Below, one piece after another: positions 2,722-25,520 of a stretch of 32,000 bases of DNA. Under the pieces are notes generated by a model that worked only from the letters and a program-made list of their open reading frames with translations, searched no databases and was not told the DNA's origin. The stretch spans positions 360,001-392,000 of the forward strand of contig JANQNC010000001.1 in the NCBI GenBank assembly GCA_028279745.1. Reading direction: 5' to 3'. The number at the start of each line of letters is the position of its first letter. Positions within the stretch are counted from its first letter, which is position 1. This stretch comes from Candidatus Nanoarchaeia archaeon (GTDB taxonomy: Archaea > Nanobdellota > Nanobdellia > Woesearchaeales > JANQNC01). Both the position numbers and the translations under genes were made by a program.

Positions 2722-3474
2722 CTAATCGTGATGTTCTTCTTGAGATTCTTCTTCTGGTTTAATCAGGTGTTTATACTTATTCTTTAGAGATTTAGGTTCG
2801 TTATGTGCTTCGACAAGCATCTCTTTCATCTCTTCAAAGCTTAATCTCTTTACCTTATTCTCATCAAACTTAAGATCTGCCTTTTCCTTAGCAGCCTTAA
2901 CCAAGTGAGCAGCAAGATCTTCCTGTTCAGATTCAGGAATCTCGCTAAGGTGCTTTGATGTTTGATGGTGATATGTTCCTCTAGAAATGTTTTGGAATGG
3001 CTCATTCAATACCTCTTTAGTAAATCCTTTCTCTTTACCAGTGTGTTTAAGCTGATGGAAATTCACACCATACAACCTTAGTGTCTCTCTTGAAAACGCA
3101 AGATGATCTTTTTCTTCTTTGCTCAGTTCTTCGCCTCGGTTCTTTTTGTTCACAATGTCTTCGTACATCTTTCCCTGAAGACCAGAAACCTCATGTAAAA
3201 CGTGAACCCCAAACCTATCAACTAACCTTTCAGCCTCGTTATCATCTTCTATCTTATAATCATTGATAAGCTTGAGAAATTCTTTGTCTGATTTATCTCT
3301 CAAATTTCCGTCAGTTTTTGACTCTGCCAACTCATAGAAATGTCTTCCCCTAATTGATTCCAGCTCGTTAATAAGTTCACCCGTCCTATCCCTATATTTA
3401 TGATCGCCTGCTTTTTTAGCAAGCTTAGAATATTTATGATCATCTAGTCTCTCTTCAACACCTTCATCAGTCAT
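2722..3474 (-). CDS. Hypothetical 250-aa highly charged (K/E/H-rich) protein
   Basis: Uninterrupted ORF with codon usage like its neighbours. No motif recognised. Confidence 0.55.
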   Translation of the reverse strand: MTDEGVEERLDDHKYSKLAKKAGDHKYRDRTGELINELESIRGRHFYELAESKTDGNLRDKSDKEFLKLINDYKIEDDNEAERLVDRFGVHVLHEVSGLQGKMYEDIVNKKNRGEELSKEEKDHLAFSRETLRLYGVNFHQLKHTGKEKGFTKEVLNEPFQNISRGTYHHQTSKHLSEIPESEQEDLAAHLVKAAKEKADLKFDENKVKRLSFEEMKEMLVEAHNEPKSLKNKYKHLIKPEEESQEEHHD

Positions 3475-3623
3475 GTAATAATTCCCAACTTTTCTATATA
3501 TAAATGTTTCGTTGACAAAGATGTCCCACTAACTATGTTTTAATGCCAATAGTCTTTATAAATAAAAATGGACCCTTTGTCTCTGTAAAATTAAAATATC
3601 ACAATCGATAAGGAGATGATAAA

Positions 3624-5492
3624 ATGGCAGCAAAAAAGAAAGCGAAAAAATCAAGCAAGAAAGAAAAGAAAGAGTTAACAGAACAAGAGAAACAAGAAAA
3701 AGAGATGATGGATAAGCTTCCACCAGAAGCAAAAGAAAAATTACTAAAAATCAAGAAAAAATTAGAAAAATTCCAAGAAAAGGTAATGGAAAAATTTGAA
3801 GAGTACGTTATTGGGATCTCATTACTCCCACCACAAGAAGGAAAGGAAGTCAAAAAAGAAGACAAAGACAAGATTAATGTAATAATTCTGATAGATGACT
3901 CAGACAGCCAAAAGATGAGCAAGTATGAGCTGAAAGAGAAGTTATCAGCTATAATGGCATCAATCGCAAAAGAGATTGATGAGAATATACAAACACAAAC
4001 AATAATCCTATCAGAATTGTGGCAGAACTGCTATGACAGCCAATATGACTTATTGCAAATGATTGCTGTTTCAGCGCCAATCTTTGACAAAGGAATGATG
4101 CAAGCATGCAAGATAGCAGAAATCCACAAGAACATGACACTAAAGAAGTTTGAAAAGTACATCGTAAGTTATGTTCTATTCGGTTCATTAGTAAGAGGAG
4201 AAGCAACTCCCGAGTCAGACATAGACGTTGCAATCATAATTGATGATACTGATGTCAAAAAGATGACTCGAGCTGAATTGAAAGACAGACTGAGGTCAAT
4301 AATAATCGGCATGGGTGTTGAGGCTGGACAGATGACTGGAATCAAAAATAAGCTGAACATCCAAGTATATATCTTGACAGACTTCTGGGACTCAGTAAAA
4401 GAAGCAAACCCTGTAATCTTTACAATACTGAGAGATGGAATTCCATTCTACGACAGAGGAGTATTTATGCCATGGAAACAGTTGTTGCGTATGGGAAAAA
4501 TAAAACCCTCCGCAGAAGCGATAGACATGTTTATGAACACAGGAGAAGAGATGCTGAAAAGAGTACAAGGGAAATTAAACGAGATAGGAATGGAAGATGT
4601 GTTTTGGAGTATTTTGACACCATCACAAGCAGCACTGATGATGAACGGGATAGCTCCACCAACACCAAGAGAAACCCCTAAACTTCTTCGTGAAGTGTTT
4701 GTAAAGAAAGAAAAAATATTTGACGACAAACACGTAAAATTCCTCGAAGAAGTGATCAAGCTAAGAAAAGAGTTAGAGTATGCTACAGAACAAGGAAAAG
4801 AGCTGAAAGTTTCAGGAGAAAAAATAGACCATCTCCTATCAAACTCAAGAACATACCTTGATGAAATAAAGAAACTATTCACAAAGATAGAAGAGAAACG
4901 ATCTGAACAAGATGTCTTACACATCTACGAAAATACAGTAACCATCATAAGAGACATAATGAGACTGGAAAACGTAGAAAGGATGAAAGATGAAGACGAG
5001 ATCAGGCTTTTCAAGAGTGAAGTTGTAAACAAAGGACTTATCCCTGAAAAGTACTTCAGGATGTTAAACGAGATCGTGAAAGCAAAAGCAGACTTTGATG
5101 CAGGCAAACTAACAAAGCCAGAAGTAGAAAAAGTCAAGAAACAGTCTGGAGAGTTCATGAGATTTATGATTGAGTACTTGCAACGGAAAAGAGGAAGGGA
5201 ATTGGAAAGAACTAAGATCCGAGTTAAACATGGAGAAAAACATGGCGAGGTCATCTTGTTGGGGAAAACAGCATTCATCATCCACGACATAGACCAAGAA
5301 GAAAAAACCATGAGCAAAGCTCCAATCAACGAAGATGGAAGTCTAGGAACTCCAGAAAATGCAACACTTGAGGAATTAGAGAAAGCATTAGCAACAGTAG
5401 AGATTCCAGAAAGGGCTTACATCAAACAACCAATCTTTAATGACTTAAAGAGATTGTTCGGTAAAGACGTTGAAGTTCTAGTTCAATACTAG
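3624..5492 (+). CDS. Pol-beta-superfamily nucleotidyltransferase domain protein with two NTase-like modules and helical C-terminal region
   Basis: Classic minimal-NTase signature FGSLVRGEATPESDIDVAIIIDD, plus an upstream degenerate copy (VIGISLL…INVIILIDDSD). Both are followed by ...M[ST][KR]xELK[ED][KR]L... The N-terminus is K/E-rich. AAGGAG lies 8 nt upstream of the ATG. Confidence 0.75.
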   Translation: MAAKKKAKKSSKKEKKELTEQEKQEKEMMDKLPPEAKEKLLKIKKKLEKFQEKVMEKFEEYVIGISLLPPQEGKEVKKEDKDKINVIILIDDSDSQKMSKYELKEKLSAIMASIAKEIDENIQTQTIILSELWQNCYDSQYDLLQMIAVSAPIFDKGMMQACKIAEIHKNMTLKKFEKYIVSYVLFGSLVRGEATPESDIDVAIIIDDTDVKKMTRAELKDRLRSIIIGMGVEAGQMTGIKNKLNIQVYILTDFWDSVKEANPVIFTILRDGIPFYDRGVFMPWKQLLRMGKIKPSAEAIDMFMNTGEEMLKRVQGKLNEIGMEDVFWSILTPSQAALMMNGIAPPTPRETPKLLREVFVKKEKIFDDKHVKFLEEVIKLRKELEYATEQGKELKVSGEKIDHLLSNSRTYLDEIKKLFTKIEEKRSEQDVLHIYENTVTIIRDIMRLENVERMKDEDEIRLFKSEVVNKGLIPEKYFRMLNEIVKAKADFDAGKLTKPEVEKVKKQSGEFMRFMIEYLQRKRGRELERTKIRVKHGEKHGEVILLGKTAFIIHDIDQEEKTMSKAPINEDGSLGTPENATLEELEKALATVEIPERAYIKQPIFNDLKRLFGKDVEVLVQY

Positions 5493-8946: not shown

Positions 8947-9079
8947 GTGGGGGTAGCAAAGTCTGGTCAAATGCGCAGGACTTAAGGCCCTAATGGTAGG
9001 ATATCCTGTCACTTAGTGTGTTCGGGGGTTCGAAAGAAGTCGAGCGGACGTTCGGCTGACGAAAGTCCCCTCCCCCACA
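8947..9079 (+). tRNA. tRNA-Leu(UAA) with two introns (canonical 37/38 intron ~8987-9002; second ~31-nt intron in the T-arm ~9036-9066)
   Basis: Acceptor GTGGGGG/CCCCCAC plus discriminator A. 3-bp D stem GCA/TGC with a long D loop. Anticodon stem CAGGA/TCCTG with loop CT-TAA-G. Long variable arm. GGGGG-TTCGAAA…CCCCT T-arm interrupted after the T-loop. Mature length about 86 nt, as expected for class II Leu. Confidence 0.8.
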
Positions 9080-9087
9080 TCTTTTAT

Positions 9088-9195
9088 GCCTCCGTGGCTT
9101 AGCGGTATAGCGTTGCATTGGTATGTTTGTTTCAAAACATTTGGAACGAAGTGACAAAAATGCAGAGGTCGCGAGTTCGATTCTCGCCGGAGGCT
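9088..9195 (+). tRNA. tRNA-Thr(GGU) with a ~36-nt canonical-position intron (~9124-9159)
   Basis: Acceptor GCCTCCG/CGGAGGC plus discriminator T. Anticodon stem TTGCA/TGCAG with loop TT-GGT-A. Variable loop AGGTC. T-arm GCGAG-TTCGATT-CTCGC. Confidence 0.85.
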
Positions 9196-9205
9196 TTCTT
9201 TAGAA

Positions 9206-9787
9206 TCAACTATTAACTTTCTCTTGAGTGCTCATAATGTCCTTTCTTCCTTCTTTAACTCTTTCAACAATTAATTTAACTCGTTTCTTTACAGTGTCTT
9301 TTCGTTTTGCTCTTAATATCCATCTGTACAACATACGTTTAAGTGACGCAGGATACTTCTGAAAATTATCATTTGCTTTTTTGTTCTTACTCAAAGCTTT
9401 CTTTAATTCTTCAGGAATGTCAGGACTTTTAGGAATTCCAGCATCATGAGTTGGTTTTTTAAGACCTTCTTTGTAATACTTAATACCTTGAGGAGCCATC
9501 ATCTTCTTTTTCAGCAACTCTTTAGCATAGCTTATAGTGTTATCACTCCACCGGCTATTCTTAGTTCGTCTAGTGAAGTTTCTAGTGTATCTTTCTTCAT
9601 CTAACCTTTTTACGGTTGTGTCAATCCAACCAAAACATATAGCTTCTTCAATCAGCTCCCTATGTGAAGGAGAAGACTTACCTGTATGTTTTTTGTATAG
9701 AATAACAGAAACTTTAGTTTCTTTATCATGATTGTTCGACAACCACCTTCTGAACTCATCTCTTGTAAAAACATTAATCGTTTCCAT
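9206..9787 (-). CDS. YdeI/OmpD-associated (OmdA/DUF1801-like) family protein
   Basis: 193 aa. FRRWLSNNH…VILYKKHTGKSSPSHRELIEEAICFGWIDTTVKRLDEERYTRNFTRRTKNSRWS matches the family's hallmark N-terminal region. Confidence 0.75.
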   Translation of the reverse strand: METINVFTRDEFRRWLSNNHDKETKVSVILYKKHTGKSSPSHRELIEEAICFGWIDTTVKRLDEERYTRNFTRRTKNSRWSDNTISYAKELLKKKMMAPQGIKYYKEGLKKPTHDAGIPKSPDIPEELKKALSKNKKANDNFQKYPASLKRMLYRWILRAKRKDTVKKRVKLIVERVKEGRKDIMSTQEKVNS

Positions 9788-10768
9788 TTACAAATTATTT
9801 TTATACCATTCAATGGTTTGTTTGATGCCGTCAATAACTCCTGTTTCAATCTCGTAACCAAGATCTTTTTCAATAGCACTAATGTCTGCTAAAGAATCTT
9901 TAATGTCTCCAGGCCTATTGGGTTTTAGTTCAGGCTCCAAATCAGAACCAAGAAGATCTGCAAGCAGACCATATAGTTTGATTAATGAATACCTGTCACC
10001 GCAAGCAACATTAAACACTTTCTGTTTAGGGTAATCTGCAAAACAAGCATGAATGTTTGCAGCAATAACATTGCTTATATGGGTGAAGTCTCTTGTTTGA
10101 GAGCCATCACCAAAGAAAACAGGTCTTTTGTTGTTAAGTATCGCTTTAACAAACAAAGGAATAACTGCAGAATAAGGAGAGTCTGGGTCTTGTCTCTTAC
10201 CAAACACATTAAAATATCTTAGACCGATAGTCTCAAGACCATAAGTTCTAAAAAAGTTATCAGCATAAAGCTCTTTAACATATTTAGTAACCGCATAAGG
10301 CGAAAGTAAGTTGCCTTTGTGCTCTTCTTTTTTAGGTAAAGTTTTTGAGTCTCCGTAAACCGAAGATGAAGAAGCATAAACAACTCTCTTTACATTGTTA
10401 AGTTTTGCAGATTCAAAAATATGTAATGTGCCGTTAATATTAGCAAAGTTAGAATCGACAGGATTCTTGATAGACCTAGGAACTGAAGCTAATGCCGCTT
10501 GATGAAGAACGTAATCAACATTTTCCATAAGTCTTATGCAAGTTTTTAGATCAGTTATATCACCTTCAACAAATTCAAAATTAGGTTTTGACATAAATTC
10601 TTCAATATTTTTCATGTGCCCTGTTGAAAGATTATCAAGAACTATGACCTTTTTAGCATTATTCTTTAACAAGTATTCACAAAGATTAGAGCCAATAAAA
10701 CCTGCGCCTCCTGTGATTAGGAATGTTGAAGCTTTGACTTTATCGTTGTATTTCTCCAGTTGTTTCAT
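9788..10768 (-). CDS. NAD-dependent sugar-nucleotide epimerase/dehydratase (extended SDR; UDP-hexose/HexNAc 4-epimerase-like)
   Basis: Rossmann motif ITGGAGFIGSNL. Catalytic SSSSVYG and SPYAVTK (YxxxK). 326 aa. Confidence 0.85.
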   Translation of the reverse strand: MKQLEKYNDKVKASTFLITGGAGFIGSNLCEYLLKNNAKKVIVLDNLSTGHMKNIEEFMSKPNFEFVEGDITDLKTCIRLMENVDYVLHQAALASVPRSIKNPVDSNFANINGTLHIFESAKLNNVKRVVYASSSSVYGDSKTLPKKEEHKGNLLSPYAVTKYVKELYADNFFRTYGLETIGLRYFNVFGKRQDPDSPYSAVIPLFVKAILNNKRPVFFGDGSQTRDFTHISNVIAANIHACFADYPKQKVFNVACGDRYSLIKLYGLLADLLGSDLEPELKPNRPGDIKDSLADISAIEKDLGYEIETGVIDGIKQTIEWYKNNL

Positions 10769-10894
10769 GATGTTTTGGATTAAGTATTGGTATAAAAGCT
10801 TAACTAAAATTTAGTACTCATTTATATATGAAAACTTAATTTCTAACTAAAAAGAGTGTCTTTAGGTGTTTAATGATAAAAATAAAATAGAAAA

Positions 10895-11932
10895 ATGTCT
10901 CAAGAAAATCAGAAATACAAAGCAAAAATCTCAGACCATAAAACTGTAAATATGTATCTGAACGATATAAGAACAACTAAACCACTTTCAAGAGAAGAAG
11001 AAATCCAACACATCAAACGGATAAAACAGGGAAGTGACTACCTAAGAAACCAGTTTATCGAAGCAAATCTAAGGTTTGTTGTTTCTGTTGTATTTAAGTA
11101 TCAACACAAAGGTTTGCCTTTACCTGACTTGATAAATGAAGGCAATCTGGGATTGATACACGCAGTAGAAACATTTAATGAAACTAGAGGTGTTAAGTTT
11201 ATCTCTCACGCAGTCTGGAAAATTAGACAGATGGCAATGAAAGCACTAAACGAAAAACCAAGATTGGTTAGGCCGTCTGCAAATGCAATCGCATTGAGAT
11301 TAAAGCTAGACAGATACATCATACCAAGACTTGAACAGAAGATCCAAAGATATCCTCTTCCCGAAGAGGTGTGTGAAGAATTTACAAAATACCAAAACAC
11401 AATATATGCAGAACAGTTTAAAGATAAATACGGGAGATATCCAGGCCTAAAAGAGTTAGAGGGCGAGAAAGAAGGCAAGGAAAAAATAACTTTAGATCGA
11501 GTAAAAAGAGCGATGGACGTGCACGATACACAACCTAGCCTAGACTCCCCCTTAGATGACGAAGATAACTCGACATTGATGGACATCCTAGTTGATGAGT
11601 CTGTTGACATATCTCCAGATAGCAGGTTAGAAGAAGAAAGTTTTGACATACACCAAGAAGAAGTGTTAAGAGTGTTAGACCCTAAATCTAGAGATATAAT
11701 AAAGATGTACAACGGGATAGACTATGACAGAGAGTACACACTTAAAGAGATAGGCAAAAAATACAAAATCTCACGAGAGAGGGCAAGACAGATAAAAAGA
11801 GACGCAGTGGAAAAGATGAGAAAGTTGTACATAAATCCTGAAAAGCTTGAAAAAAGATTACTAGAAATTAGAGAAACTCCAGGCATGCTAAAACCAACAC
11901 CCTCTAAAATAGGCAGACCGAAAAAACAGTAA
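10895..11932 (+). CDS. Sigma-70 family RNA polymerase sigma factor homologue (regions 1.2, 2, 3, 4)
   Basis: YLNDIRTTKPLSREEE (r1.2). FIEANLRFVVSVVFKYQHKGLPLPDLINEGNLGLIHAVETFNETRGVKFISHAVWKIRQMAMKAL (r2.1-2.4). RLVRPSANAIALRLKL (r3.0). LDPKSRDIIKMYNGID…YTLKEIGKKYKISRERARQIKRDAVEKMRKL (r4.1-4.2). Confidence 0.85.
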   Translation: MSQENQKYKAKISDHKTVNMYLNDIRTTKPLSREEEIQHIKRIKQGSDYLRNQFIEANLRFVVSVVFKYQHKGLPLPDLINEGNLGLIHAVETFNETRGVKFISHAVWKIRQMAMKALNEKPRLVRPSANAIALRLKLDRYIIPRLEQKIQRYPLPEEVCEEFTKYQNTIYAEQFKDKYGRYPGLKELEGEKEGKEKITLDRVKRAMDVHDTQPSLDSPLDDEDNSTLMDILVDESVDISPDSRLEEESFDIHQEEVLRVLDPKSRDIIKMYNGIDYDREYTLKEIGKKYKISRERARQIKRDAVEKMRKLYINPEKLEKRLLEIRETPGMLKPTPSKIGRPKKQ

Positions 11933-12049
11933 ACCTTATAAACAACTTATTGATTCTCAAGGGTAAGATCGAGAGACAGGAACTGTGCAAGCATTCCTGA
12001 ACTGGAGATAAGAACATAATTCTATCTCATTAAAAGGTCTGGAGGAAAA

Positions 12050-12505
12050 ATGGCAAGAAAATATTCAAGAGACAAAGGAAAAAGCGGAAGTACAAAACCT
12101 TTGAAAAAAGCATTACCTACCTGGATAAGATACAAAGCAAAAGAAGTAGAGCTACTAGTTACAAAATTAGCAAAAGAAGGTAAAGGTGCTTCAATGATTG
12201 GATTAGCATTAAGAGATTCATACGGTATTCCTGATGTAAAAAAAGTAACAGGTAAATCAATAACCGCAATCCTAAAAGAAAAAGAAGCTGCAGGAGCAAT
12301 ACCTGAAGACATAGCATTCCTGATAAAAAGAGTAGTACAGCTAAAGAAACATCTAGAGCTTAACCACAAAGATATGACTGCAAAAAGAGGACTGCAGTTA
12401 ACAGAATCAAAAGTGAAAGCTTTAGAAAAATACTACAAAAGAACAGGTGCTTTGCCTAAAACATTCAAATACACAACAGCAAACGCAGCAATGCTTCTAA
12501 GATAA
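12050..12505 (+). CDS. rps15: 30S ribosomal protein S15 (archaeal S15P / eukaryotic S13e type)
   Basis: 151 aa, the archaeal/eukaryotic length. Motifs GKSGSTKP…, MIGLALRDSYGIPDVKKVTGKSI and KDMTAKRGLQLTESK. GGAGG lies 5 nt upstream of the ATG. Confidence 0.95.
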   Translation: MARKYSRDKGKSGSTKPLKKALPTWIRYKAKEVELLVTKLAKEGKGASMIGLALRDSYGIPDVKKVTGKSITAILKEKEAAGAIPEDIAFLIKRVVQLKKHLELNHKDMTAKRGLQLTESKVKALEKYYKRTGALPKTFKYTTANAAMLLR

Positions 12506-12523
12506 ATTTTTATCTTATTTTTT

Positions 12524-13132
12524 TTATTTCATTTTCAAACCAGAGCCTGTTTCACCAGTCCTAAGATTATGCCATTTACAGTTATTAGTTTCTGTGTCTA
12601 TTGTGTAAACCACATCATTACAACCATCAAAGTCCTTCAGCTCTTTAATATTTGTCTTAGTGAATCTGGCAAGTATGGCTCTATTAATCCCTAAATGAGC
12701 CACAATTAAAACATAATCATAATTTTTACTTTGGATATCTTCAATACAACTACATACTCTTTCATATACAGAATTATAACTTTCTCCACCTTCTATAGCT
12801 TTATCAAGATCATCAAACCTTGCGGCCAATATTTTTTTAATGTCAGGATTGGTTTCATCCTTCTCATCTGCAACACCGAAGTCCATCTCTTTTAATCTAT
12901 CATCAACATCAACGCTCAAACCTTTAAGATCTGCAGCGGGTTGCGCAGTATCTCTTGCCCTGGTCAAAGGAGAAGAGTAAATTGCCTCAATATTTTCATG
13001 AAGAATAAAGTTCGCAAGGTTCTTTGAATGCTCTACGCCTTCATCTATAAGTCTTGCTTTATCTGATGAGCCTGCCACTACCTTCTGCGCATTAAAGTCT
13101 GTCTTTCCATGTCTAGATATTATAAATCTCAA
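12524..13132 (-). CDS. Histidine phosphatase superfamily protein (phosphoglycerate-mutase-like)
   Basis: N-terminal RHGKTDFN (RHGxTxxN) catalytic motif, downstream SSPLTRARDTA, and a late VAHLG histidine. Confidence 0.8.
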   Translation of the reverse strand: MRFIISRHGKTDFNAQKVVAGSSDKARLIDEGVEHSKNLANFILHENIEAIYSSPLTRARDTAQPAADLKGLSVDVDDRLKEMDFGVADEKDETNPDIKKILAARFDDLDKAIEGGESYNSVYERVCSCIEDIQSKNYDYVLIVAHLGINRAILARFTKTNIKELKDFDGCNDVVYTIDTETNNCKWHNLRTGETGSGLKMK

Positions 13133-13138
13133 TTTTAC

Positions 13139-13408
13139 CTAAAGAATATTTCTAACGTTATCAATATGTTCAGCGACATCGCCGCCTTTTTTAGTTAATG
13201 TAAGAAGTTTTAATCTGCCTTGTTTTTCAAAATTGATCAAACCAGACTTTTCCATTTCCTGTAGAACTTTAACAACATGAGAGTAAGTGCAATCAACTTG
13301 CTTAGCAAGATTAGATGCATAGATAGCTGACTTAGAATTTTTCATAATAACCAACATCATTGCAGGTTTTTCTCGGAAAAAAGCTCTAAACATTTTATCA
13401 TTCACCAT
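13139..13408 (-). CDS. Small winged-helix transcriptional regulator
   Basis: 89 aa. YASNLAKQVDCTYSHVVKVLQEMEKSGLINFEKQGRLKLLTLTKKG gives an HTH plus wing pattern. Immediately upstream of the phosphatase gene. Confidence 0.7.
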   Translation of the reverse strand: MVNDKMFRAFFREKPAMMLVIMKNSKSAIYASNLAKQVDCTYSHVVKVLQEMEKSGLINFEKQGRLKLLTLTKKGGDVAEHIDNVRNIL

Positions 13409-13539
13409 CTATAATATACCCCCTATAATATATCGGTTGCAGGCTATATTTAAAGGTTTCGATTAAACTTGGAGTAGTAAAACTCAGTGGACATCCTTTA
13501 ACGTAAAGGATATAAATAGAGAGCTAAGAGGGTTAGAAT

Positions 13540-15405
13540 ATGAACCTATTCCCATTCTCAGAACAAAGAAACGTGCAGAAATCTATGATAGAAGACATAG
13601 AGAAAGCTTTGGAAGAGAAAAAGCACATGATCTTACATGCACCAACAGGACTGGGGAAAACAGTAGCAACACTGGCTCCTGCTTTGGCTTACGCATTAAA
13701 AAAAGACATAAATGTATTTTTCTTAACATCAAGACACACACAACACATGATTGCAGTGAACACTTTGAAAGAGATAAAGAAAAAACACGATGTTGATTTC
13801 CAAGTAATTGACATGATAGGGAAAAAATGGTTGTGTGCAGTGGAGGGAAGTGAAAAATTTTTCTCAAATGAGCTAACCGAATATTGCAAAACACAAAGAG
13901 AAGAAGGACTGTGTGAACAATATAATAATACAAAACAAAAAAGTAAGTTCACAGTAGAAGCGAAAAGATTAATGAGCGAGATACAAGACGGACCAATCCT
14001 AAACGTAGAAGAAGCAAAAAAAAGAATAGCAGACGAAAAGATGTGCCCATACTATCTGATGATGGGAATGGCAGAAAAGGCAAAAGTGATCATAGGCGAT
14101 TATTACCATTTATTCCACCCAGGAGTGAGTGAAACTTTTTTAATGCAGTCTGGCAAGAAGATTGAGAATTCTATCATCATTGTAGATGAAGGACATAACT
14201 TGCCTGGAAGAGCTAGAGAGTTACTAACTGAAAGATTATCTAACTTCGTAACAAAAAGAGCAATCAAAGAAGCAAAAGACTTGAAGAATTCAGAGATTGC
14301 AAATTGTCTAGAAAAAATGCATGAGCTAATAACCCAGTTAGGAAAAGAAACACAAGATGAAAAACCTATCACGAAGGATGCATTTGTTCAATTGGTGGAG
14401 AAAGTTACTGCATACAAGTATGATGAGTTAATGGTTGAATTAGATACATTGAGCGAGTTAGTGAGAGATGAGAAAAAACAAAGTTTTTGCGGGATAATAA
14501 GTGGGTTTATGGAAAAATGGATGGGTGAAGATGAAGGGTATGTTAGAATAATAAGTAAACAAAGAGGAAGGGGTAAAGAAGATTTCATAACTGTAAGTTA
14601 CAGATGTTTAGATCCTTCACTAATAACAAAGCCAGTAATTGAAAGTTCACTAATGACAATCTTGATGTCAGGTACATTAACACCAACACAGATGTATAAA
14701 GATTTACTAGGGTTTCCTGCAGATGCAATAGAAAAAACTTATCCATCTCCTTTCGAGGAAGAGAATAAACTGACACTTATGATTCCAGAAACAACAACAA
14801 AATATTCTGCCAGATCAGAAGCACAATACGAAAGAATTGCTGAAATAATAACTGAAGTTTCAGAATCAATACCCGGGAATGTAGCAATATTCTTTCCAAG
14901 CTATTACATAATGAATGAAGTTTACAAAAAATTCTTTGACAAATGCAGCAAAACCGTATTTACTGAGCAACCCAACTTATCAAAAGATGAAAAAGCTGAA
15001 CTATTTGGTAAATTTGAACAATATAAAAAAGTAGGAAGTGTTTTTTTGGGGGTTGTTTCAGGCAGTTTCGGAGAAGGGATTGATTTACCCGGCGACCTAT
15101 TGAAAGGAGTTGTAATAGTTGGGTTGCCGTTAACTAAACCCAATATTGAAACAGAAGCTTTGATCAAGTACTTTGATCAGAAATTTAAGAAAGGATGGGA
15201 TTATGGTTATATCTTCCCTGCAATGAATAAAACTTTACAAAGTGCTGGGCGTTGTATAAGAACTGAAACAGATAAGGGTGTTGTTGTGTTCTTAGATGAA
15301 AGATACACTTGGGATAATTACTACAGATGTTTCCCAATCGAATGGAAAATAAAAATCACTAAGATGTATGTTGATAGGATCAAGGAGTTTTTTGATAAGG
15401 TTTGA
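13540..15405 (+). CDS. xpd: XPD/Rad3-type (DinG family) Fe-S DNA helicase
   Basis: Walker A HAPTGLGKT and DEGH box VDEGHNL. Four Cys in the Fe-S domain region (WLCAVEG…EYCKTQ…GLCEQY…MCPYY). C-terminal motifs GSFGEGIDLPG and QSAGRCIR. Confidence 0.9.
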   Translation: MNLFPFSEQRNVQKSMIEDIEKALEEKKHMILHAPTGLGKTVATLAPALAYALKKDINVFFLTSRHTQHMIAVNTLKEIKKKHDVDFQVIDMIGKKWLCAVEGSEKFFSNELTEYCKTQREEGLCEQYNNTKQKSKFTVEAKRLMSEIQDGPILNVEEAKKRIADEKMCPYYLMMGMAEKAKVIIGDYYHLFHPGVSETFLMQSGKKIENSIIIVDEGHNLPGRARELLTERLSNFVTKRAIKEAKDLKNSEIANCLEKMHELITQLGKETQDEKPITKDAFVQLVEKVTAYKYDELMVELDTLSELVRDEKKQSFCGIISGFMEKWMGEDEGYVRIISKQRGRGKEDFITVSYRCLDPSLITKPVIESSLMTILMSGTLTPTQMYKDLLGFPADAIEKTYPSPFEEENKLTLMIPETTTKYSARSEAQYERIAEIITEVSESIPGNVAIFFPSYYIMNEVYKKFFDKCSKTVFTEQPNLSKDEKAELFGKFEQYKKVGSVFLGVVSGSFGEGIDLPGDLLKGVVIVGLPLTKPNIETEALIKYFDQKFKKGWDYGYIFPAMNKTLQSAGRCIRTETDKGVVVFLDERYTWDNYYRCFPIEWKIKITKMYVDRIKEFFDKV

Positions 15406-15424
15406 GGTTGAGTTAACTTTCATT

Positions 15425-16210
15425 TTAATCATACTTAATCTTCTCCAAAGTTTTCCTATCAAATGTTGTTATGTTTATTCTAATTCCTGCACTGTCTTGT
15501 TTGTCATTAAGACCTTCCATACTTCCAAAGTATTCATTACCCAATTGTTCAATGCCAAGCTTTCCAAGATTAAGATCTTTCATACCCAAAGCAAACCAAG
15601 GCGGTTCTACTCTAATGCCTTCTGTTGTCAATACAAGATCAATCTTATCTTTGCCGTCAAAAGTATAACTATCAACAAAGCCTTCAATCTTTCTTGATTC
15701 AGTGACCATCTCTGTGCCAAAACATTTTGGTATTTCCTGTTCAATCTTTCCATTAACAAATATAGAAAAATGATACTTCCCTTCTTTATATCTTAAAGTC
15801 ATACTCTCAAACTTATCCAGTTCAAGACTATAATCTATATCATTAGCATCATAAAACTCCTTCAAAGAAGTCATCGCGTGCCTAAGCGCATCTTTCTTTA
15901 AAACAACAGGTCTTCCTCTTTTGACGTGAGGATTCTTGTGAAATTCTTTAAATGTCTCATAAAAAATATCAACTGGAGCAATTCCAGAATAAACCTTGTC
16001 ATTCACTGCTCTTTTTGCAAGCTCTTCAGCCTTTTCATTATTTACATTAATTGCGCTTTCAAGAAGAATGTCTTCAACAGTCTTTTCAAGTTGAGTTATT
16101 CTCTCCTGAGATTTTTTTAAAGCTTCATCCTGTTTTAAGTTTTGAAATATGCTAAATCCTAATGCACCTAGTACTGCCGCATAAACTATTGGTTTTAGTA
16201 TCTTTTTCAT
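15425..16210 (-). CDS. Hypothetical N-terminally membrane-anchored/secreted 261-aa protein
   Basis: N-terminal hydrophobic segment MKKILKPIVYAAVLGALGFSIF, then a coiled-coil-like stretch. No family recognised. Confidence 0.6.
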   Translation of the reverse strand: MKKILKPIVYAAVLGALGFSIFQNLKQDEALKKSQERITQLEKTVEDILLESAINVNNEKAEELAKRAVNDKVYSGIAPVDIFYETFKEFHKNPHVKRGRPVVLKKDALRHAMTSLKEFYDANDIDYSLELDKFESMTLRYKEGKYHFSIFVNGKIEQEIPKCFGTEMVTESRKIEGFVDSYTFDGKDKIDLVLTTEGIRVEPPWFALGMKDLNLGKLGIEQLGNEYFGSMEGLNDKQDSAGIRINITTFDRKTLEKIKYD

Positions 16211-16347
16211 TTTCTCCTCTTCTTTAATTCTTGCAGAGCATACTCTACTACGTGAGATTTGTTTCTAAACGTGTTTTCAGTTCTGATCAGATCTCTGATT
16301 AGACAGATAGTCTCTTCTTCTATTGAAACAGTGATTCTGCTTTTCAT
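16207..16347 (-). CDS. 46-aa ribbon-helix-helix (CopG/Arc/MetJ-like) DNA-binding protein (not in ORF track)
   Basis: MKSRITVSIEEETICLIRDLIRTENTFRNKSHVVEYALQELKKRRK shows a beta-strand/helix/helix pattern. Its TGA overlaps the downstream ATG (ATGA). Confidence 0.55.
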   Translation of the reverse strand: MKSRITVSIEEETICLIRDLIRTENTFRNKSHVVEYALQELKKRRK

Positions 16348-16953
16348 ACTAAGTGAGAGAAAGTATTACTTATATATAAACATACGTTTTTTTATCACTT
16401 TTAAGTAGTTATATGATATTTGGAGTAAACAGCTTGAAAACCTATATTCTCCAATATACACATTATACAGGTATACTAAATCATAACATTTATATATGAG
16501 TATATCTATAGATACGTTAGTATACAAATTCGTATATTTGTATATGTTACAATGATAGAGGCCTGGTGGGAAAATCATATTTCTAAAAGACCCCTCACAC
16601 CCTTAGAAACCCTTTTTTCACGGGGCCTCATTCATGTTCACAAAAAAAAGAGGACTTCCCAAAAATTTATTCTCAAACCGACCCCAAACCCTGAGACGGG
16701 GAGTCTCACTCTTTTTTTCTCACATTCCCTCACTCAAAAAACATACTCTCAGTTAAGGCTGGGAAAAGAGGTGTTAGATGGGATAAGCTCGCAAGAGTCT
16801 TATTCCAATAAGTACAAAAAATACAGAAACAGCAATAGCAACTACAGCAATTGAATCAAATAAATAACGGTTAAGGAGCCCTCCTCGTAAAACCACTGGA
16901 TTGGGGGAGGAGATTCCTTTTTCATATTCACACATACTCACGGGGGTGACAAG

Positions 16954-17094
16954 ATGTACGATAATAATCAAACACAATACAAACCAATCACATACGAACC
17001 ACAACTTATGATGACTGCTCCAAAGAAGGAGAAAAAACCATCACTGTTGATGGAAATGTATAACATCCTAAAAGCAGGAATATACTTCAGATAA
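16954..17094 (+). CDS. Possible 46-aa ORF (MYDNNQTQYKPITYEPQLMMTAPKKEKKPSLLMEMYNILKAGIYFR)
   Basis: GGGGGTGA lies 4 nt upstream of the ATG. Ends 19 nt before the HD gene. No homology recognised. Confidence 0.25.
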   Translation: MYDNNQTQYKPITYEPQLMMTAPKKEKKPSLLMEMYNILKAGIYFR

Positions 17095-17113
17095 AACTTT
17101 TTTTATAACAAAT

Positions 17114-17644
17114 ATGAGAGAGAAAACAGCCATAACTCTCTTGAAAGAGAGAACTCTTGGCCTATTCAAAATATTATTAAGGCATGTGCAGAAGGTAAGA
17201 CAGATTGCTGTGCAAATAGCAAAACAGATACCTGATGCAGATATGCAGTTAGTAAAAACAGGAGCATTACTTCATGACATTGGAAGAGTGAACTGCCCCC
17301 CTCAAGACAAGAAAAAGTCACACTGGCACGGAGTGGAAGGAGGCAACATACTAAGAGGATACAGATTAGAAAAGGAAGCAAGAATAGCAGAAAGACACTT
17401 GGGAGGTGGAATAGACAAAAAAGAGGCAAAAAAGCTCGGCTTCCCAGACAGAATATACACCCCACTCACAATAGAAGAAAAAATTGTTTGTTATGCGGAC
17501 AAACTAGTTGAGTACGACAAAAAGATACCCATAAAAAAAACAATAGTAAGATTTGAAAAAGAGGTGGGAAAGGATGCAGCAAATAAAATCAAGAAACTGC
17601 ACAACTACCTAATAAAAAAAGGAATGAAAGGTGATAAACTATGA
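17114..17644 (+). CDS. HD-domain metal-dependent phosphohydrolase
   Basis: 176 aa with LLHDIGR (the HD dyad), ERHLGGG and CYADKL. Confidence 0.8.
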   Translation: MREKTAITLLKERTLGLFKILLRHVQKVRQIAVQIAKQIPDADMQLVKTGALLHDIGRVNCPPQDKKKSHWHGVEGGNILRGYRLEKEARIAERHLGGGIDKKEAKKLGFPDRIYTPLTIEEKIVCYADKLVEYDKKIPIKKTIVRFEKEVGKDAANKIKKLHNYLIKKGMKGDKL

Positions 17645-17654
17645 GAGCAATACT

Positions 17655-18863
17655 TTACAAGAACTTATTCAGTTTGGTCTGGTGCTTTATATGCTTCACC
17701 AAAACACTTCTATCCAAAACATTAGCTAATTCATAACCAAACTTCTTTTTTATTAATTTTTTAGAAAACTCAATCATCAAGTCTCTATCAGCAAACTGTA
17801 TAGGTGGAGAGTTAATAGTTTTTCTAACAGCTTCTCTGACAACCCAAACACCCAAAGGAGTATAATATTCTTCTGAGATAAATCTTAACACGAAAACAGA
17901 GGATTGTCTTTTCATCTGCTTTAATTTTTCAATTATTGGGAGTCTAGCAGCATAATATCCTCCAACACAATTTTCAGCATACTTTGTTCTTCCTTTGAAT
18001 AATTCGTAATCAGTGCTGAAAGTAATATTATTTGGGTCTTTCTTTAACATTCCTTCAAATAACTCAAAACCCCAAACGTCATCAAATAAAAGAATCAGAT
18101 AATAATTTCCAAGATAACTGTTGAAGAAAGCTAAACAGTCAGATTCTGGAAAATCTCTTAGTTCCTTGATAATATTTTTACCAACATTATCATCAACAGC
18201 AGTAATAGACCACTTTGTAGGCACCAGACGTCTATCCTTCTTTACTCCAATGTTGCCAATGCTTAATAGTTTAGTAAGAAAAGATTCTTCATAACCTTTA
18301 TCATATAAAGTGTTCATAGCTTCATTTGCTTTGAAGTCTATATCACTAACAACTTTATCAACTTTAGTGTCAATCTTTGGGTTTGAGGTTAATTCAACCT
18401 TTTGTAAATTAGCATTTGGGCCGGTTGGAGCCATCATGTTACTAAAGTTAACATTAAACTTCATCTTCTCTTTTAGGTCAACTTCAATATCTACTGGCTT
18501 TGAGGCCATGCCAACTTCTTGACTTAGTTCTAAAAGTTTATCTGTATGCCTAATGTCTGTGTTAAATCTTGAGTTGACTAATTCAGATCTAAGTGCAATG
18601 ACTTTATCGATCTCAAACTCATTTTTCCCCCAGAACCTTTGAGCGTCGAAAAGCCAGGCGTTTTTATCTAATTCAGTAGGACTCATAATCCCAACATTAA
18701 CTTTAGGATAGCCATATTCTCCTACGAATACTGTTGGTGCTGAGCCTTCAAAACTATTGTCGATAATGTTTGTCTTGAAATGATTAACAGCAGACTCTTT
18801 AGATCTTAAAGGACAGTATGCTTTATCACATGCTTCACTTTTACCACACCTAGGACATCTCAT
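17655..18863 (-). CDS. nreA: Archaeal Nre-family protein (NreA-like; DUF650/DUF651 architecture)
   Basis: 402 aa. N-terminal Cys cluster MRCPRCGKSEACDKAYCP. Hallmark APTVFVGEYGYPKVNVG. C-terminal YYTPLGVWVVRE. Confidence 0.75.
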   Translation of the reverse strand: MRCPRCGKSEACDKAYCPLRSKESAVNHFKTNIIDNSFEGSAPTVFVGEYGYPKVNVGIMSPTELDKNAWLFDAQRFWGKNEFEIDKVIALRSELVNSRFNTDIRHTDKLLELSQEVGMASKPVDIEVDLKEKMKFNVNFSNMMAPTGPNANLQKVELTSNPKIDTKVDKVVSDIDFKANEAMNTLYDKGYEESFLTKLLSIGNIGVKKDRRLVPTKWSITAVDDNVGKNIIKELRDFPESDCLAFFNSYLGNYYLILLFDDVWGFELFEGMLKKDPNNITFSTDYELFKGRTKYAENCVGGYYAARLPIIEKLKQMKRQSSVFVLRFISEEYYTPLGVWVVREAVRKTINSPPIQFADRDLMIEFSKKLIKKKFGYELANVLDRSVLVKHIKHQTKLNKFL

Positions 18864-19029
18864 ACTTAAAAGAATTTTAAAGTGTTAAAAAAAGGTTTGG
18901 GTTGGCCTTTAAAAAAGGGTTAGCTTATTTGGGGCAAATAAATGAGCCCTTTTTACAAATAAGTGTTTTATAAATAATGGGTGGGTTGTTTGATAAATTA
19001 CTACTAAAAAGGGGTAAAAAATAGAAAGA

Positions 19030-19037
19030 TTTAAAAA
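19030..19037 (+). promoter_or_regulatory. TATA-box-like element upstream of the repeat-protein gene
   Basis: TTTAAAAA lies 17-23 nt before ATGs 19054/19060. The spacing suggests a leaderless or near-leaderless mRNA. Confidence 0.3.
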
Positions 19038-19053
19038 GGGTTTTGTCTTCCAG

Positions 19054-20715
19054 ATGATTATGAATAAGAAAAGGAACACAATTGAGGAGATCGCAGACTT
19101 TCTATTAGAGAATGGAGGGATTACTGAAGAGGGCAGAGTTCACTATGAGTTGAAAGGTGCGAGGTGTGAGGAGTTAGAATCTGCTATTGTTATGGCTGAA
19201 TTGAGGGGTCTGCCAAAAGGCTTCAAGCCTTATCATGCTAGACAGATTAAATGTGTTTGGGATAATCCTGAATACGTTGAGAATGTCTTAGTTAGCAAGA
19301 TTGATCAAGTGTTGGAAGAAAAATGTAAGGACAGTTTATTTGATTTAATAACTAAAACCGTCACGTCTCACTTATTTTCTCATTTTAAAGATGAAGTCAA
19401 TGGTAAAGCTTTGAAGGTTTCAATGCGTTCGGTTAGCGGTAAATTTAACCAATGTGCATTTGAAATGGTCAAAAAGTATGTAGATTTGAAAGGTATAAAA
19501 GGTTTTGAAAATCTAAAACCTTATCATTTTAAGCAAGCATCTCAGAATACGTGGGATGATGAATGTATTGTGAATGAAGTCTTAAAAAGGAGAATTGGTG
19601 AATTACTAAAAGAAAATTATAACAATGACTTTGTTAAACTAATTTCAAAGGTAAGTTATGAGGAGTTAGTTGCACCTATTAGAGATAAACTTGATGGAAA
19701 AGATGTTGAAGTTTCTCTAGTTAGGTTTAGTAAAAAGTTTGGCGACAATATTTATAATATACTCAAAGCTTATGTTGGTTTAGAAGGTTTGGAGGGTTTT
19801 GAGAATTTTAAACCATATCATCTTAACAACACTACCAGAAACACTTGGAACGATCAATCTGCATTAGATGAAGTTCTTATGAGAAAGGTTGATCAGTTAT
19901 TGGAAGAAAAATATGAGGGTAGTTTGGCTAGGTTAATAGAATGCACAGATAAGTTTGAATTATTTACTCCTATAAAAGATAATTTGGGCGGTAAAGATAT
20001 TAATATTTCAGTTTATAGTGTAGGTCAGAAGTTTAATGATAGTCCTTACCTTATGATTAAGTCTTATATTGATCTTAAAGGTTTAAAAGGTTTTGATAAC
20101 TTTAAAGCATATCATCTAGGTGCACCCGATCATGACATTTGGAGTAATCAAGATGCAGTAAATGAGGTTCTTGTTATGAAAATTGATCAATTGTTGGAGG
20201 AAAGTTATAAAGGAGATTTGATCGAATTGATAAAGAATACATGTAATAACGAATTATTGGCTCCCGTTATAGATAAACTTAATGGGGAAGAAGTTAAGAT
20301 TCGGATGCGTTCAGTAGCGGATAAATTTAACACGTGCCCATTTAAAATGATCAAAGCATATATTTGTCTTAAGGGGTTAGATGGTTTTGAGAAGTTTAAA
20401 CCATATCATCTCGGCAACTCATCTAAAGAAACCTGGTCTGATCAAGATGCAGTAAATGAGGTTCTTGTTATGAAAATTGATCAATTGTTGGAGGAAAAAT
20501 ATGGGGGTGACTTAGTGAAACTAACAACTAGTACAAATCATAAGGAATTAACAACACCTGTTAAAGACGAGCTTGGTGGAAAAGATGTTGAGATTTCAAT
20601 GTATAGGTTAAATACAAAATTTAATGATAGCCCATATGAAATGCTAAAAAAATATCATGAAATAAAAGGTCTACCTTTCAACTATACCAAAAGTAATTAT
20701 AAGACTGCAGTGTAA
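19054..20715 (+). CDS. Orphan tandem-repeat protein: five ~98-aa repeats plus an N-terminal partial repeat
   Basis: Repeat consensus is KPYHxxxxxxxxW[DNS]xxxxVxEVLxxKIDQLLEExYxGxLxxLIxxxxxxELxxPxxDxLxGKxVxISxxSVxxKFNxSPYxMxKxYxxLKGLxGFxNF. No signal peptide or TM. An alternative start lies at ATG 19060. Confidence 0.7.
   Translation: MIMNKKRNTIEEIADFLLENGGITEEGRVHYELKGARCEELESAIVMAELRGLPKGFKPYHARQIKCVWDNPEYVENVLVSKIDQVLEEKCKDSLFDLITKTVTSHLFSHFKDEVNGKALKVSMRSVSGKFNQCAFEMVKKYVDLKGIKGFENLKPYHFKQASQNTWDDECIVNEVLKRRIGELLKENYNNDFVKLISKVSYEELVAPIRDKLDGKDVEVSLVRFSKKFGDNIYNILKAYVGLEGLEGFENFKPYHLNNTTRNTWNDQSALDEVLMRKVDQLLEEKYEGSLARLIECTDKFELFTPIKDNLGGKDINISVYSVGQKFNDSPYLMIKSYIDLKGLKGFDNFKAYHLGAPDHDIWSNQDAVNEVLVMKIDQLLEESYKGDLIELIKNTCNNELLAPVIDKLNGEEVKIRMRSVADKFNTCPFKMIKAYICLKGLDGFEKFKPYHLGNSSKETWSDQDAVNEVLVMKIDQLLEEKYGGDLVKLTTSTNHKELTTPVKDELGGKDVEISMYRLNTKFNDSPYEMLKKYHEIKGLPFNYTKSNYKTAV
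19222..20691 (+). repeat. Five tandem in-frame repeats with exact 294-nt period
   Basis: The AAA-CCx-TAT-CAT (KPYH; KAYH in unit 4) landmark recurs at 19222, 19516, 19810, 20104 and 20398. Units 4 and 5 share an identical 57-nt block (20147-20203 = 20441-20497). Confidence 0.85.
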
Positions 20716-23567: not shown

Positions 23568-23936
23568 ATGAATGTATTCAAATGCGAAGTCTGTGGAAAC
23601 ACAATATCTTTTGTAGACAACAAAGGACCAAAGATAGTATGCTGTGACAAAGAGATGGAAGAATTACCAATAAAAACAGAAGATGAAGGACAAGAAAAAC
23701 ACGTGCCAGTATTAAGTGTGGAAGGAAACAAAGTAAATGTTAAAGTTGGATCTGTAGAACACCCAATGGAAGACGAACACTACATACAACTTATTCAATT
23801 AGTCCAGAATGACAAAGTAATATTTGAAAAAAGACTATCTCCAGGAGAAAAACCAGAAGCAGAGTTCTTGGTTGAAAACACTGAAAATCTAAAAGCAAGG
23901 GAAGTATGCAACGTTCACGGATATTGGAGCAACTAA
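23568..23936 (+). CDS. dfx: Desulfoferrodoxin (2Fe superoxide reductase)
   Basis: N-terminal desulforedoxin Cys4 (CEVCGN…VCCDKEM). SOR centre II ligands EKHVP, HPMEDEHYI and CNVHG. 122 aa. Confidence 0.9.
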   Translation: MNVFKCEVCGNTISFVDNKGPKIVCCDKEMEELPIKTEDEGQEKHVPVLSVEGNKVNVKVGSVEHPMEDEHYIQLIQLVQNDKVIFEKRLSPGEKPEAEFLVENTENLKAREVCNVHGYWSN

Positions 23937-23937
23937 A

Positions 23938-24147
23938 ATGGTCTTAACTGAGATTGCATATGCTAAATTTTTAGGTCTTTCAACAATAGTTTATGTTGGG
24001 ATAATTACTTACGCTTTAGTTTTAGCAGCAGTAATCACAGGATTAAAAGGCGCACCAATAAAAGTGCATAAGACATTGGCAGGGTTCGCAATAGTATTAG
24101 CGACAGTACATGCACTTTTAGTGCTTGGCGGACAACTAGGATGGTGA
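23938..24147 (+). CDS. 69-aa two-TM membrane protein with two His 14 residues apart in TM2
   Basis: Starts 1 nt after the dfx stop. Hydrophobic helices at about 11-36 and 46-64. H44 and H58 sit in KVHKTLAGFAIVLATVHALL. Confidence 0.55.
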   Translation: MVLTEIAYAKFLGLSTIVYVGIITYALVLAAVITGLKGAPIKVHKTLAGFAIVLATVHALLVLGGQLGW

Positions 24148-24151
24148 GAAA

Positions 24152-24295
24152 ATGGATAAAAAATTTTTCAGATGCACAGTATGCGGAGACATACACTTTG
24201 GCATTAATGGACCAGAACACTGTCCAACATGCCAGCAGGACAACAAGTATGTAGAAATAGACAAAGAAGAAGCAAAAAACATACTAGGACTATGA
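24152..24295 (+). CDS. 47-aa rubredoxin-like Cys4 zinc-ribbon protein (not in ORF track)
   Basis: MDKKFFRCTVCGDIHFGINGPEHCPTCQQDNKYVEIDKEEAKNILGL has CxxC…CxxC spaced as in the rubrerythrin C-terminal domain. Its TGA overlaps the next ATG (ATGA). Confidence 0.6.
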   Translation: MDKKFFRCTVCGDIHFGINGPEHCPTCQQDNKYVEIDKEEAKNILGL

Positions 24296-24561
24296 ATCCA
24301 GAAGAACTAAAGAAGGCCTGGGGGAAATTTACAGAGAAAAACGAATTTATTCTTAACCCTGATGAAAAATATGTCGATGGCATAATTGATGGCGTGTTAA
24401 AGAACGAAGAGAAACACGGTCTGAAGTTATGTCCTTGCAGACTGAGGGATGAAACAAAAGAAAAAGACCTAGAACTAATATGCCCCTGTAATTTCGAAAT
24501 ACAAAAAAACTGGGATAAAAAAGGAGATTGTTGGTGCGGATTGTTTGTAAAAAGGAAATAG
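24292..24561 (+). CDS. Ferredoxin:thioredoxin reductase catalytic-subunit-like protein, copy 1
   Basis: CPC…CPC…CWCGLF cysteine pattern. I place the start at ATG 24292 (MNPEELKK…), not the track's 24229, whose extra 21 codons overlap the rubredoxin-like ORF. Confidence 0.75.
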   Translation: MNPEELKKAWGKFTEKNEFILNPDEKYVDGIIDGVLKNEEKHGLKLCPCRLRDETKEKDLELICPCNFEIQKNWDKKGDCWCGLFVKRK

Positions 24562-24591
24562 TTAAAAGTAAAGGTGTAAAAGTTATAAAAA

Positions 24592-24897
24592 ATGGATAAA
24601 GAACAACTACTGAACTTCTACAAGAAGTTTACAGAAGGCAAGGACTTCAAACTGACAGAGAATGAAGAACATCTAGACATGATCTTAACAGGTTTAATTA
24701 ATAACCAAAAAAAACATGGAATCAGGAGCTGTCCATGCAAAGCAAATAACGGAAGCAAAGAACAACTAATCAAGAATGCTTGTCCATGCAAGTTCAAAGA
24801 AGAAGAGATCTGGACCAAAGAAAACAGATGTTGGTGTGGATTGTTTGAAAGGAGATCAACAGCTGGAGCATCAGCTGACACTGCAGACGACTCCTAG
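24592..24897 (+). CDS. Ferredoxin:thioredoxin reductase catalytic-subunit-like protein, copy 2
   Basis: Paralogous to copy 1, with the same spacing: CPCKANN…ACPCKFK…RCWCGLFERR. Has an extra S/T/A/D-rich tail. Confidence 0.75.
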   Translation: MDKEQLLNFYKKFTEGKDFKLTENEEHLDMILTGLINNQKKHGIRSCPCKANNGSKEQLIKNACPCKFKEEEIWTKENRCWCGLFERRSTAGASADTADDS

Positions 24898-25506: not shown

Positions 25507-25520
25507 GAGGTAAAACAAAA

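Follow-up and report, generated by a model that had tools for sequence, protein, structure and literature searches.

We examined a 32,000-nucleotide stretch of the genome of Candidatus Nanoarchaeia archaeon (assembly GCA_028279745.1, contig JANQNC010000001.1, positions 360,001 to 392,000 of the forward strand), which is referred to in full as the window and whose first letter is position 1. Among its archaeal genes lies one that encodes a protein of the sigma-70 family. The 345-amino acid open reading frame (ORF) that the original prediction had placed at 10895–11932 is present as described, on the plus strand. The gene and its parts are as follows.

10895..11932, plus strand: sigma-70-family gene, 345 amino acids, ATG start (Pfam, NCBIfam, and PDB matches; AlphaFold2 (AF2) model)
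10946..11032, plus strand: region 1.2, residues 18–46 (Pfam Sigma70_r1_2)
11039..11263, plus strand: sigma2, residues ~49–123 (PDB alignments; column statistics over 150 relatives)
11264..11533, plus strand: sigma3, remodeled, residues ~124–213 (Pfam r3 below threshold; sigma3 profile; column statistics)
11387..11485, plus strand: 33-amino acid charged insert KYQNTIYAEQFKDKYGRYPGLKELEGEKEGKEK, residues 165–197, between regions 3.0 and 3.1 (gap columns in relatives)
11534..11614, plus strand: region 3.2 "sigma finger" linker PSLDSPLDDEDNSTLMDIL, residues ~214–240 (invariant columns)
11615..11830, plus strand: sigma4, residues ~241–312, with the helix-turn-helix (HTH) SRERARQ (Pfam Sigma70_r4; RpoD alignment)
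11870..11929, plus strand: 20-amino acid basic, proline-rich tail RETPGMLKPTPSKIGRPKKQ, residues 326–345 (alignment gaps; AF2)

The protein (hereafter the window sigma) is organized in regions 1.2-2-3-4 and possesses neither region 1.1 nor the non-conserved insert. All four regions had been called recognizable by eye, and three of them score significantly over the Pfam gathering cut-offs: Sigma70_r4 (PF04545; 4.4e-15, 55.4 bits, cut-off 24.1), Sigma70_r2 (PF04542; 5.6e-12, 45.7 bits, cut-off 24), and Sigma70_r1_2 (PF00140; 1.4e-6, 28.6 bits, cut-off 22). Sigma70_r3 (PF04539), with 21.0 bits, stays slightly under its cut-off of 25.3. The sigma-70 superfamily model of NCBIfam, TIGR02937, matches with 89.5 bits (cut-off 42.9). 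The best partial NCBIfam models are those of RpoS and RpoD, and the equivalog cut-offs are all missed widely (RpoS TIGR02394, 169.8 bits versus 378.7; RpoD_Cterm, 149.8 versus 354). We rejected an identity as MzaA, the MZA anti-phage sigma, for which the NCBIfam score is 144 bits versus a cut-off of 800; in addition, the PADLOC match to MzaA spans the sigma2 part only, and no defense genes are adjacent.

A sequence search of the PDB returned SigA, RpoD, and RpoS chains with E values down to 2.8e-40. The HMMER alignments fall into two blocks, residues 13–163 and 197–310, with breaks at 163 and 197–200. In the AF2 model, sigma2, sigma3, and sigma4 are confident (block predicted local distance difference test (pLDDT) scores of 80–94) and the linkers are disordered; the best fold matches of the model are SigA and SigmaS chains in holoenzyme structures. 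From the base composition of the gene (37% GC), ~25 stop codons would be expected in 345 codons. The frame contains none, indicating that it is not a chance ORF; the other two frames of the same strand contain 37 and 32 stops.

We compared the window sigma with its 150 closest representatives and counted as conserved the ~61 positions with a conservation of 80% or more. In sigma2, helix 2.2 (DLINEGNLGL), the element that binds the beta-prime coiled-coil, is intact, with none of its 11 conserved positions changed. Three of nine such positions are changed in region 2.1 and three of 12 in region 2.3, compared with one of 10 in region 4.2. The strings DLINEGNLGLIHAVETFN and F-I-S-H-A-V-W-K-I-R-Q, quoted in the original prediction, are both found in the protein. 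In region 2.3, Val-100, His-105, and Lys-109 correspond to the changes Y425V, Y430H, and W434K in Escherichia coli numbering, and the family aspartate at E. coli position 420 is an asparagine (D95N); Trp-108 (E. coli W433) and Gln-112 (E. coli Q437) are kept. Among the four melting aromatics (E. coli Y425, Y430, W433, and W434), for which roles in driving the strands apart and in holding the flipped −11A have been demonstrated (PMC4496690; PMC7057261), the window sigma keeps W433 only. Across the 150 relatives, site 430 is a tyrosine in 144 and site 434 a tryptophan in 143.

In sigma3, the near-invariant RLP motif reads RPS (P128S), and both extended −10 readers are replaced (E. coli H455 by Asn-130 and E458 by Ala-133); the equivalent of T440 in region 2.4/3.0 is also gone (T440M). 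On a sigma3 profile made from the relatives, the window sigma scores 33 bits, and the median is 64. AF2 nonetheless predicts the helices of sigma3. The charged insert is lineage-specific, its columns (165–197) being gaps in >80% of the 150 relatives, and an extended helix of the AF2 model (residues 156–179) reaches into it. The original prediction had noted an expanded linker between regions 3 and 4; the extra length instead belongs to this insert and to the C-terminal tail (326–345), and the region 3.2 linker is of normal length with its acidic motif retained.

The sigma finger retains the family-invariant residues Ser-215 and Asp-217, as well as Pro-219 and Asp-230. Its low AF2 confidence (pLDDT <50) is as expected of a linker that becomes ordered only on RNA polymerase (RNAP). 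The −35 readers of sigma4 are intact: Arg-294, Glu-295, Arg-296, Arg-298, and Gln-299 correspond to E. coli R584, E585, R586, R588, and Q589, and the last four of them occupy invariant family columns. The C-terminal tail, which ends in KIGRPKKQ, is absent from >80% of the 150 relatives and predicted by AF2 to be disordered. Its GRPKK core appears to be AT-hook-like, with no match in Pfam. At the level of residues, these comparisons show that the putative determinants of core binding and −35 reading are preserved, and those of −10 melting and of sigma3 altered.

The following features of the surroundings bear on the residency of the gene.

9088..9195, plus strand: tRNA with a 38-nucleotide intron in the anticodon loop, 1.7 kb upstream of the sigma gene (Rfam RF00005, 54.9 bits)
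12050..12505, plus strand: ribosomal protein S15P/S13e (PF08069 and PF00312), 118 nucleotides downstream of the sigma gene on the same strand

YdeI and epimerase genes sit between the tRNA and the sigma gene, and the latter and the epimerase gene are divergent. The relatives of S15 (59–74% identity) carry the organism names Candidatus Woesearchaeota archaeon or Nanoarchaeota archaeon. Further archaeal markers in the window are Nre_N/Nre_C, DTD2 (PF04414), an XPD helicase, and an L11 of the archaeal type (NF002232, 205 bits, cut-off 162), so that Pfam and NCBIfam bear out the diagnostic archaeal flanks (S15P/S13e, Nre, DTD2, and archaeal L11) that had been named from the letters. Intron-bearing tRNAs had been named as well; the one listed above is confirmed, and it is the only one detectable in the window. 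It was found by Rfam, and ARAGORN reported no tRNA in the window.

That the locus might be an assembly chimera had been raised as an alternative. Misassembly or mis-binning that brought together bacterial and archaeal DNA would account for the nearest relatives of the window sigma all being bacterial. However, archaeal genes flank the sigma gene within 120–130 nucleotides on both sides of one contig, and a second assembler reproduces the arrangement: a Logan assembly contig of SRR20820740 corresponds to window positions 8957–20176 with 0 mismatches over 11,220 nucleotides and covers both junctions of the sigma gene, from the tRNA, YdeI, epimerase, sigma, and S15 genes through Nre. The exact window sigma is recorded on an NCBI contig of 1,301,350 bp. 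The GC content of the gene, its GC content at third codon positions (GC3, 0.34), and its synonymous-codon likelihood (−0.98) are all inside the range of the neighbors, from which it is indistinguishable, as had been judged by eye before. Moreover, the best bacterial identity is only ~40%, so that no co-occurring donor sequence is known, and mis-binning was excluded in the literature for the class of DPANN sigma-70 genes (PMC8204110). Because the second assembly is identical across the junctions, the contig is 1.30 Mb long, and the codon use matches, chimerism or mis-binning is very unlikely and, in our view, largely refuted. The match to host codon usage indicates long residence. The window sigma is an intact chromosomal gene long resident in a small, symbiotic-type Woesearchaeote (DPANN).

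The search for relatives covered about 15 billion proteins, in which nothing else is more than roughly 45% identical to the window sigma. An exhaustive HMMER search of 1.84 billion representatives returned 70,880 homologs, none with more than ~47% identity. In a search of 5.8 billion clusters, the next true matches after the protein itself were RpoD/SigA proteins of ~288 amino acids from Bacteroidota, Chitinivibrionales, and Eisenbacteria (38–41% identity). The closest short (~288-amino acid) primary sigmas overall come from Fibrobacterota, Bacteroidota, Chitinivibrionales, and Eisenbacteria, with 38–45% identity, and the names found for the 150 best representatives include Fibrobacterota, Bacteroidota, and one Woesearchaeota. 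In a neighbor-joining tree, the window sigma is unstable and groups weakly, and most often, beside two sigmas from Fibrobacterota metagenome-assembled genomes. A scan of a genome-contig collection with the window sigma returned only an unrelated Desulfobacteraceae sigma (30% identity). As judged from these searches, the window sigma is an orphan with no close relative known.

Three apparent top matches (P0002, P0003, and P0005; 235–243 bits) were set aside. In each of these bacterial ORFs, regions 2–4 are tandemly duplicated, and the repeats inflate the homology scores; the duplications are probably assembly artifacts. The contexts of bacterial contigs with duplicated sigmas are HtrA-sigma-UDG and trigger factor, ClpP, and ClpX. 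Among variants that score low on sigma3 or have unusual motifs, P0272 has a bacterial context (FtsK and LeuRS), that of P0271 is ambiguous, and the contigs of P0233 and P0177 are too short.

A second archaeal sigma, MBI4158652.1 (P0412), named "RpoD/SigA [Candidatus Woesearchaeota archaeon]," is found among the top representatives.

3158–4363 of JACQNJ010000001.1 (GCA_016203115.1): MBI4158652.1 sigma, 401 amino acids

Its gene lies on a 22.8-kb contig, adjoins PTH2, and is near L35Ae. The protein retains the canonical FISYAVWWIRQ, lacks ~27 amino acids of region 3.0, and carries an N-terminal extension of ~125 amino acids with a weak sigma4-like HTH. Its best matches are sigmas from Bacteroidota (Cytophagales) with 46–51% identity. 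The two archaeal sigmas share 36% identity and are no closer to each other than each is to bacterial sigmas. Pfam r3 is undetected in both, and it is listed for all other proteins shown in both homology searches. On the sigma3 profile, MBI4158652.1 scores 18 bits. Because some bacterial representatives also score low (a Fibrobacterota protein, for example, with 28 bits), a low sigma3 score is suggestive, not diagnostic, of archaeal status. From their sequence affinities, the Woesearchaeal sigmas are derived from a short primary sigma of the FCB (Fibrobacterota-Chlorobiota-Bacteroidota) type and are individually very divergent.

With moderate confidence, we propose from the pattern of retained and altered residues that the window sigma is maintained and functions in the archaeal cell as a DNA-binding, sequence-specific transcription regulator. 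Maintenance is supported by the open frame, the confident folds, the finger invariants, and the conserved positions kept in helix 2.2 (11/11) and region 4.2 (9/10). The gene would have been acquired horizontally from a bacterium with a short primary sigma without region 1.1 (Fibrobacterota/Bacteroidota type), would have resided long enough for its codon usage to match that of the host and for its identity to fall to ~40%, and would have been kept as a working protein rather than a relic. In this reading, sigma4 would continue to recognize a −35-like motif of the TTGACA type, and the GRPKK tail possibly adds minor-groove contacts in AT-rich DNA (the genome has 35% GC). Helix 2.2 and the acidic 3.2 finger may still be able to bind a multisubunit RNAP at a coiled-coil/cleft. 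With only one of the four classical melting aromatics left, the window sigma probably nucleates −10 melting less well or in a different way, and the contacts of sigma3 would be remodeled. Region 1.1 is auto-inhibitory, and truncations of sigma-70 that remove it should bind DNA freely. Free DNA binding should hence be possible for the window sigma, which is without this region. Sigmas with reduced melting capacity depend on near-consensus or pre-destabilized promoters, and by analogy we predict the same dependence for the window sigma.

Several observations weigh against a maintained regulator. The window sigma differs at 12 of the ~61 conserved positions, whereas the relatives differ at 4.9 on average (S.D. 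3.0) and only three of the 150 differ as much; this excess of changes also fits relaxed constraint. Helix 2.2 may be conserved for structural reasons rather than for partner binding. Sites of the −35/−10 type are not enriched nearby (16 versus 15.4 expected in a 5-kb scan, which has little power). Furthermore, no ortholog exists from which purifying selection could be read as the ratio of nonsynonymous to synonymous substitution rates (dN/dS), and a sigma is missing from the neighborhood of S15 in its two closest relatives with long contigs.

The same 12 changes, together with the loss of Y430 and W434, the sub-threshold sigma3, and the status of a singleton with no ortholog among the relatives, would suit a neutral or decaying leftover, the frame of which is open and foldable but which has no role without a bacterial RNAP and slowly erodes. 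We consider such a relic rather unlikely. It would have to have kept 345 codons free of the ~25 stops expected, when the other frames hold 32–37, and its codon usage is fully ameliorated, which argues for long residence. Small genomes would tend to purge dead genes, and the contig of this one is only 1.3 Mb long. In addition, the changes are clustered by sub-region, with none of 11 positions changed in region 2.2, one of 10 in region 4.2, and the finger invariants kept.

The kept parts also bear on a possible partner. The clamp coiled-coil of archaeal Rpo1N (A′) is homologous to the clamp helices of beta-prime and is the site used by TFE and Spt5. Sigma3 contacts bacteria-specific surfaces. 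The window sigma could have been domesticated to work across domains with the archaeal, Pol II-like RNAP, as a gene-specific activator or a competitor of TFE/TFB. As such a hybrid initiation or regulatory factor, it would dock with sigma2 on the Rpo1N coiled-coil, insert its finger into the cleft, and, at some promoters, compete or cooperate with TFB/TFE. Sigma4 and the GRPKK tail would anchor it on AT-rich DNA, and the lost −10 melting residues and remodeled sigma3 would be adaptations to promoters driven by TBP/TFB/TFE. No parts of this strongly diverged sigma are better kept than the coiled-coil-binding helix and the finger, and sigma3 is remodeled in both archaeal sigmas examined. We nevertheless assign this arrangement a low probability. 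The conservation of helix and finger can be structural, MBI4158652.1 keeps the canonical melting residues, so that region 2.3 bears no common "archaeal" signature of adaptation, and the two proteins, at 36% identity, are no closer mutually than to bacterial sigmas.

The retained determinants for bacterial core binding (helix 2.2, the 3.2 finger, and sigma4) would also serve a protein aimed at a bacterial RNAP, either as an effector that is delivered to a bacterial host or neighbor and redirects transcription there or as a sigma that pairs with an RNAP of the bacterial type supplied by a mobile element. To our knowledge, neither a bacterial host of Woesearchaeota nor a route for protein transfer has been established. 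That Woesearchaeota share many protein families with bacteria (PMC8204110) is in line with such a role. However, the N terminus is hydrophilic (MSQENQKYKAK…) with no obvious signal peptide or export motif by inspection, no secretion-system genes are nearby in the window, and the lost melting aromatics would make the protein a poor initiator on a bacterial RNAP. We regard the two forms, taken jointly, as quite improbable.

The regulator that we favor can be set beside the sigmas known from bacteria. In E. coli sigma-70 and RpoS (groups 1 and 2, solved on RNAP), the domains align with those of the window sigma at E values of 1e-31 to 1e-40. Retained from E. coli sigma-70 are D403, E407, N409, F419, R423, F427, W433, and Q437 as well as the −35 readers R584, E585, R588, and Q589; in contrast, Y425V, Y430H, W434K, T440M, H455N, and E458A are changed. 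Similar to alternative sigmas of groups 3 and 4, the window sigma is without a complete aromatic melting set, but it is group-1-like in its architecture and relatives, with region 1.2 and an apparently full sigma3. The short RpoD/SigA proteins of the FCB group share with it the organization 1.2-2-3-4 without region 1.1 or the non-conserved insert and the motifs LPDLINEGNLGL, KFISxAVW, and TRERxRQIK. In contrast to these, the window sigma has an archaeal host, changes at 12 of ~61 positions including two melting aromatics, a remodeled sigma3, and a C-terminal tail.

Sigma factors on the one side and TBP/TFB/TFE on the other mark the textbook divide between bacterial and archaeal/eukaryotic initiation. 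A sigma long kept in an archaeal cell, which should not need one, raises the possibility either that a bacterial initiation factor can work with or against an archaeal RNAP or that DPANN archaea manipulate bacterial neighbors. The pattern of the window sigma, with core binding and −35 reading kept and −10 melting and sigma3 changed, indicates which activities to test first. Sigma-70 genes (protein family fam00359) have been described in DPANN as "particularly prevalent in Woesearchaeota" by Castelle et al. (2021, Front Microbiol, PMC8204110), who excluded mis-binning as an explanation, detected no anti-sigma factors, and offered no clear mechanism. The novelty of the gene was therefore overestimated in the original prediction, the reading of which was right on identity and archaeal context and is partly supported overall. 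As in the published cases, a sigma-70 protein is found among the archaeal genes of a Woesearchaeote with no anti-sigma nearby. Unlike them, the window sigma alone has Y430H/W434K, the 33-amino acid sigma3 insert, and the GRPKK tail, and it is 36% identical to MBI4158652.1 and at most ~45% to anything else. Our literature search found no paper beyond PMC8204110 on sigma factors in DPANN, and as far as the searchable literature shows, the residue-level pattern and the sigma3 remodeling appear to be undescribed. Since the phenomenon itself is published for Woesearchaeota, the locus adds an unusually divergent, well assembled, and experimentally tractable example.

Upstream of the gene, the intergenic region common with the epimerase gene contains a candidate promoter element.

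10821..10828, plus strand: TTTATATA box, candidate archaeal TATA box, 74 nucleotides upstream of the sigma ATG

Octamers resembling a TATA box occur 19 times in the 100 nucleotides upstream of 32 genes, about 6-fold over the ~2.9 that the rate across the whole window would predict. A Shine-Dalgarno motif is missing from the sigma gene, and a GGAGG precedes the start of S15. In the 118-nucleotide spacer between the two genes (11933–12049), CTTATAAA directly follows the sigma stop codon, and the middle part is GC-richer. No anti-sigma factor is found near the window sigma. An integrative island, suggested by the tRNA beside three possibly bacterial-derived genes, is unsupported, as the 3′ end of the tRNA has no att-like direct repeat. 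A viral or defense origin is likewise unsupported: a scan of viral contigs with the window sigma gave no match, and PHROGs and PADLOC returned generic sigma homology only.

Elsewhere in the window, a small winged-helix protein (HVO_A0114/HTH_45-like) is encoded at 13139–13408 on the minus strand and has weak PADLOC matches to CARF-associated and to Csa3-type winged HTH models; no other defense genes were found near it. A stretch of ~900 nucleotides at 16211–17113 is without a credible gene, its sole ORF (16552–16854) showing aberrant codon use. It contains AT-rich repeats of the TATA(T/C) type (16360–16550), followed by a GC-richer stretch broken by T-runs, and Rfam gave nothing significant across it; it could be a noncoding RNA of a new type or an origin-like or regulatory region. 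The L11 gene (30486–31235, minus strand) encodes 249 amino acids, of which the archaeal L11 model spans residues 1–162 only, indicating a C-terminal extension of ~85 amino acids. Finally, a compact oxidative-stress cluster at 23568–27180 on the plus strand comprises a desulfoferrodoxin/SOR, two tandem paralogs that resemble the beta subunit of ferredoxin-thioredoxin reductase (24229–24561 and 24592–24897), a rubrerythrin, a protein of the ferritin/Dps type, and a flavoprotein similar to thioredoxin reductase.

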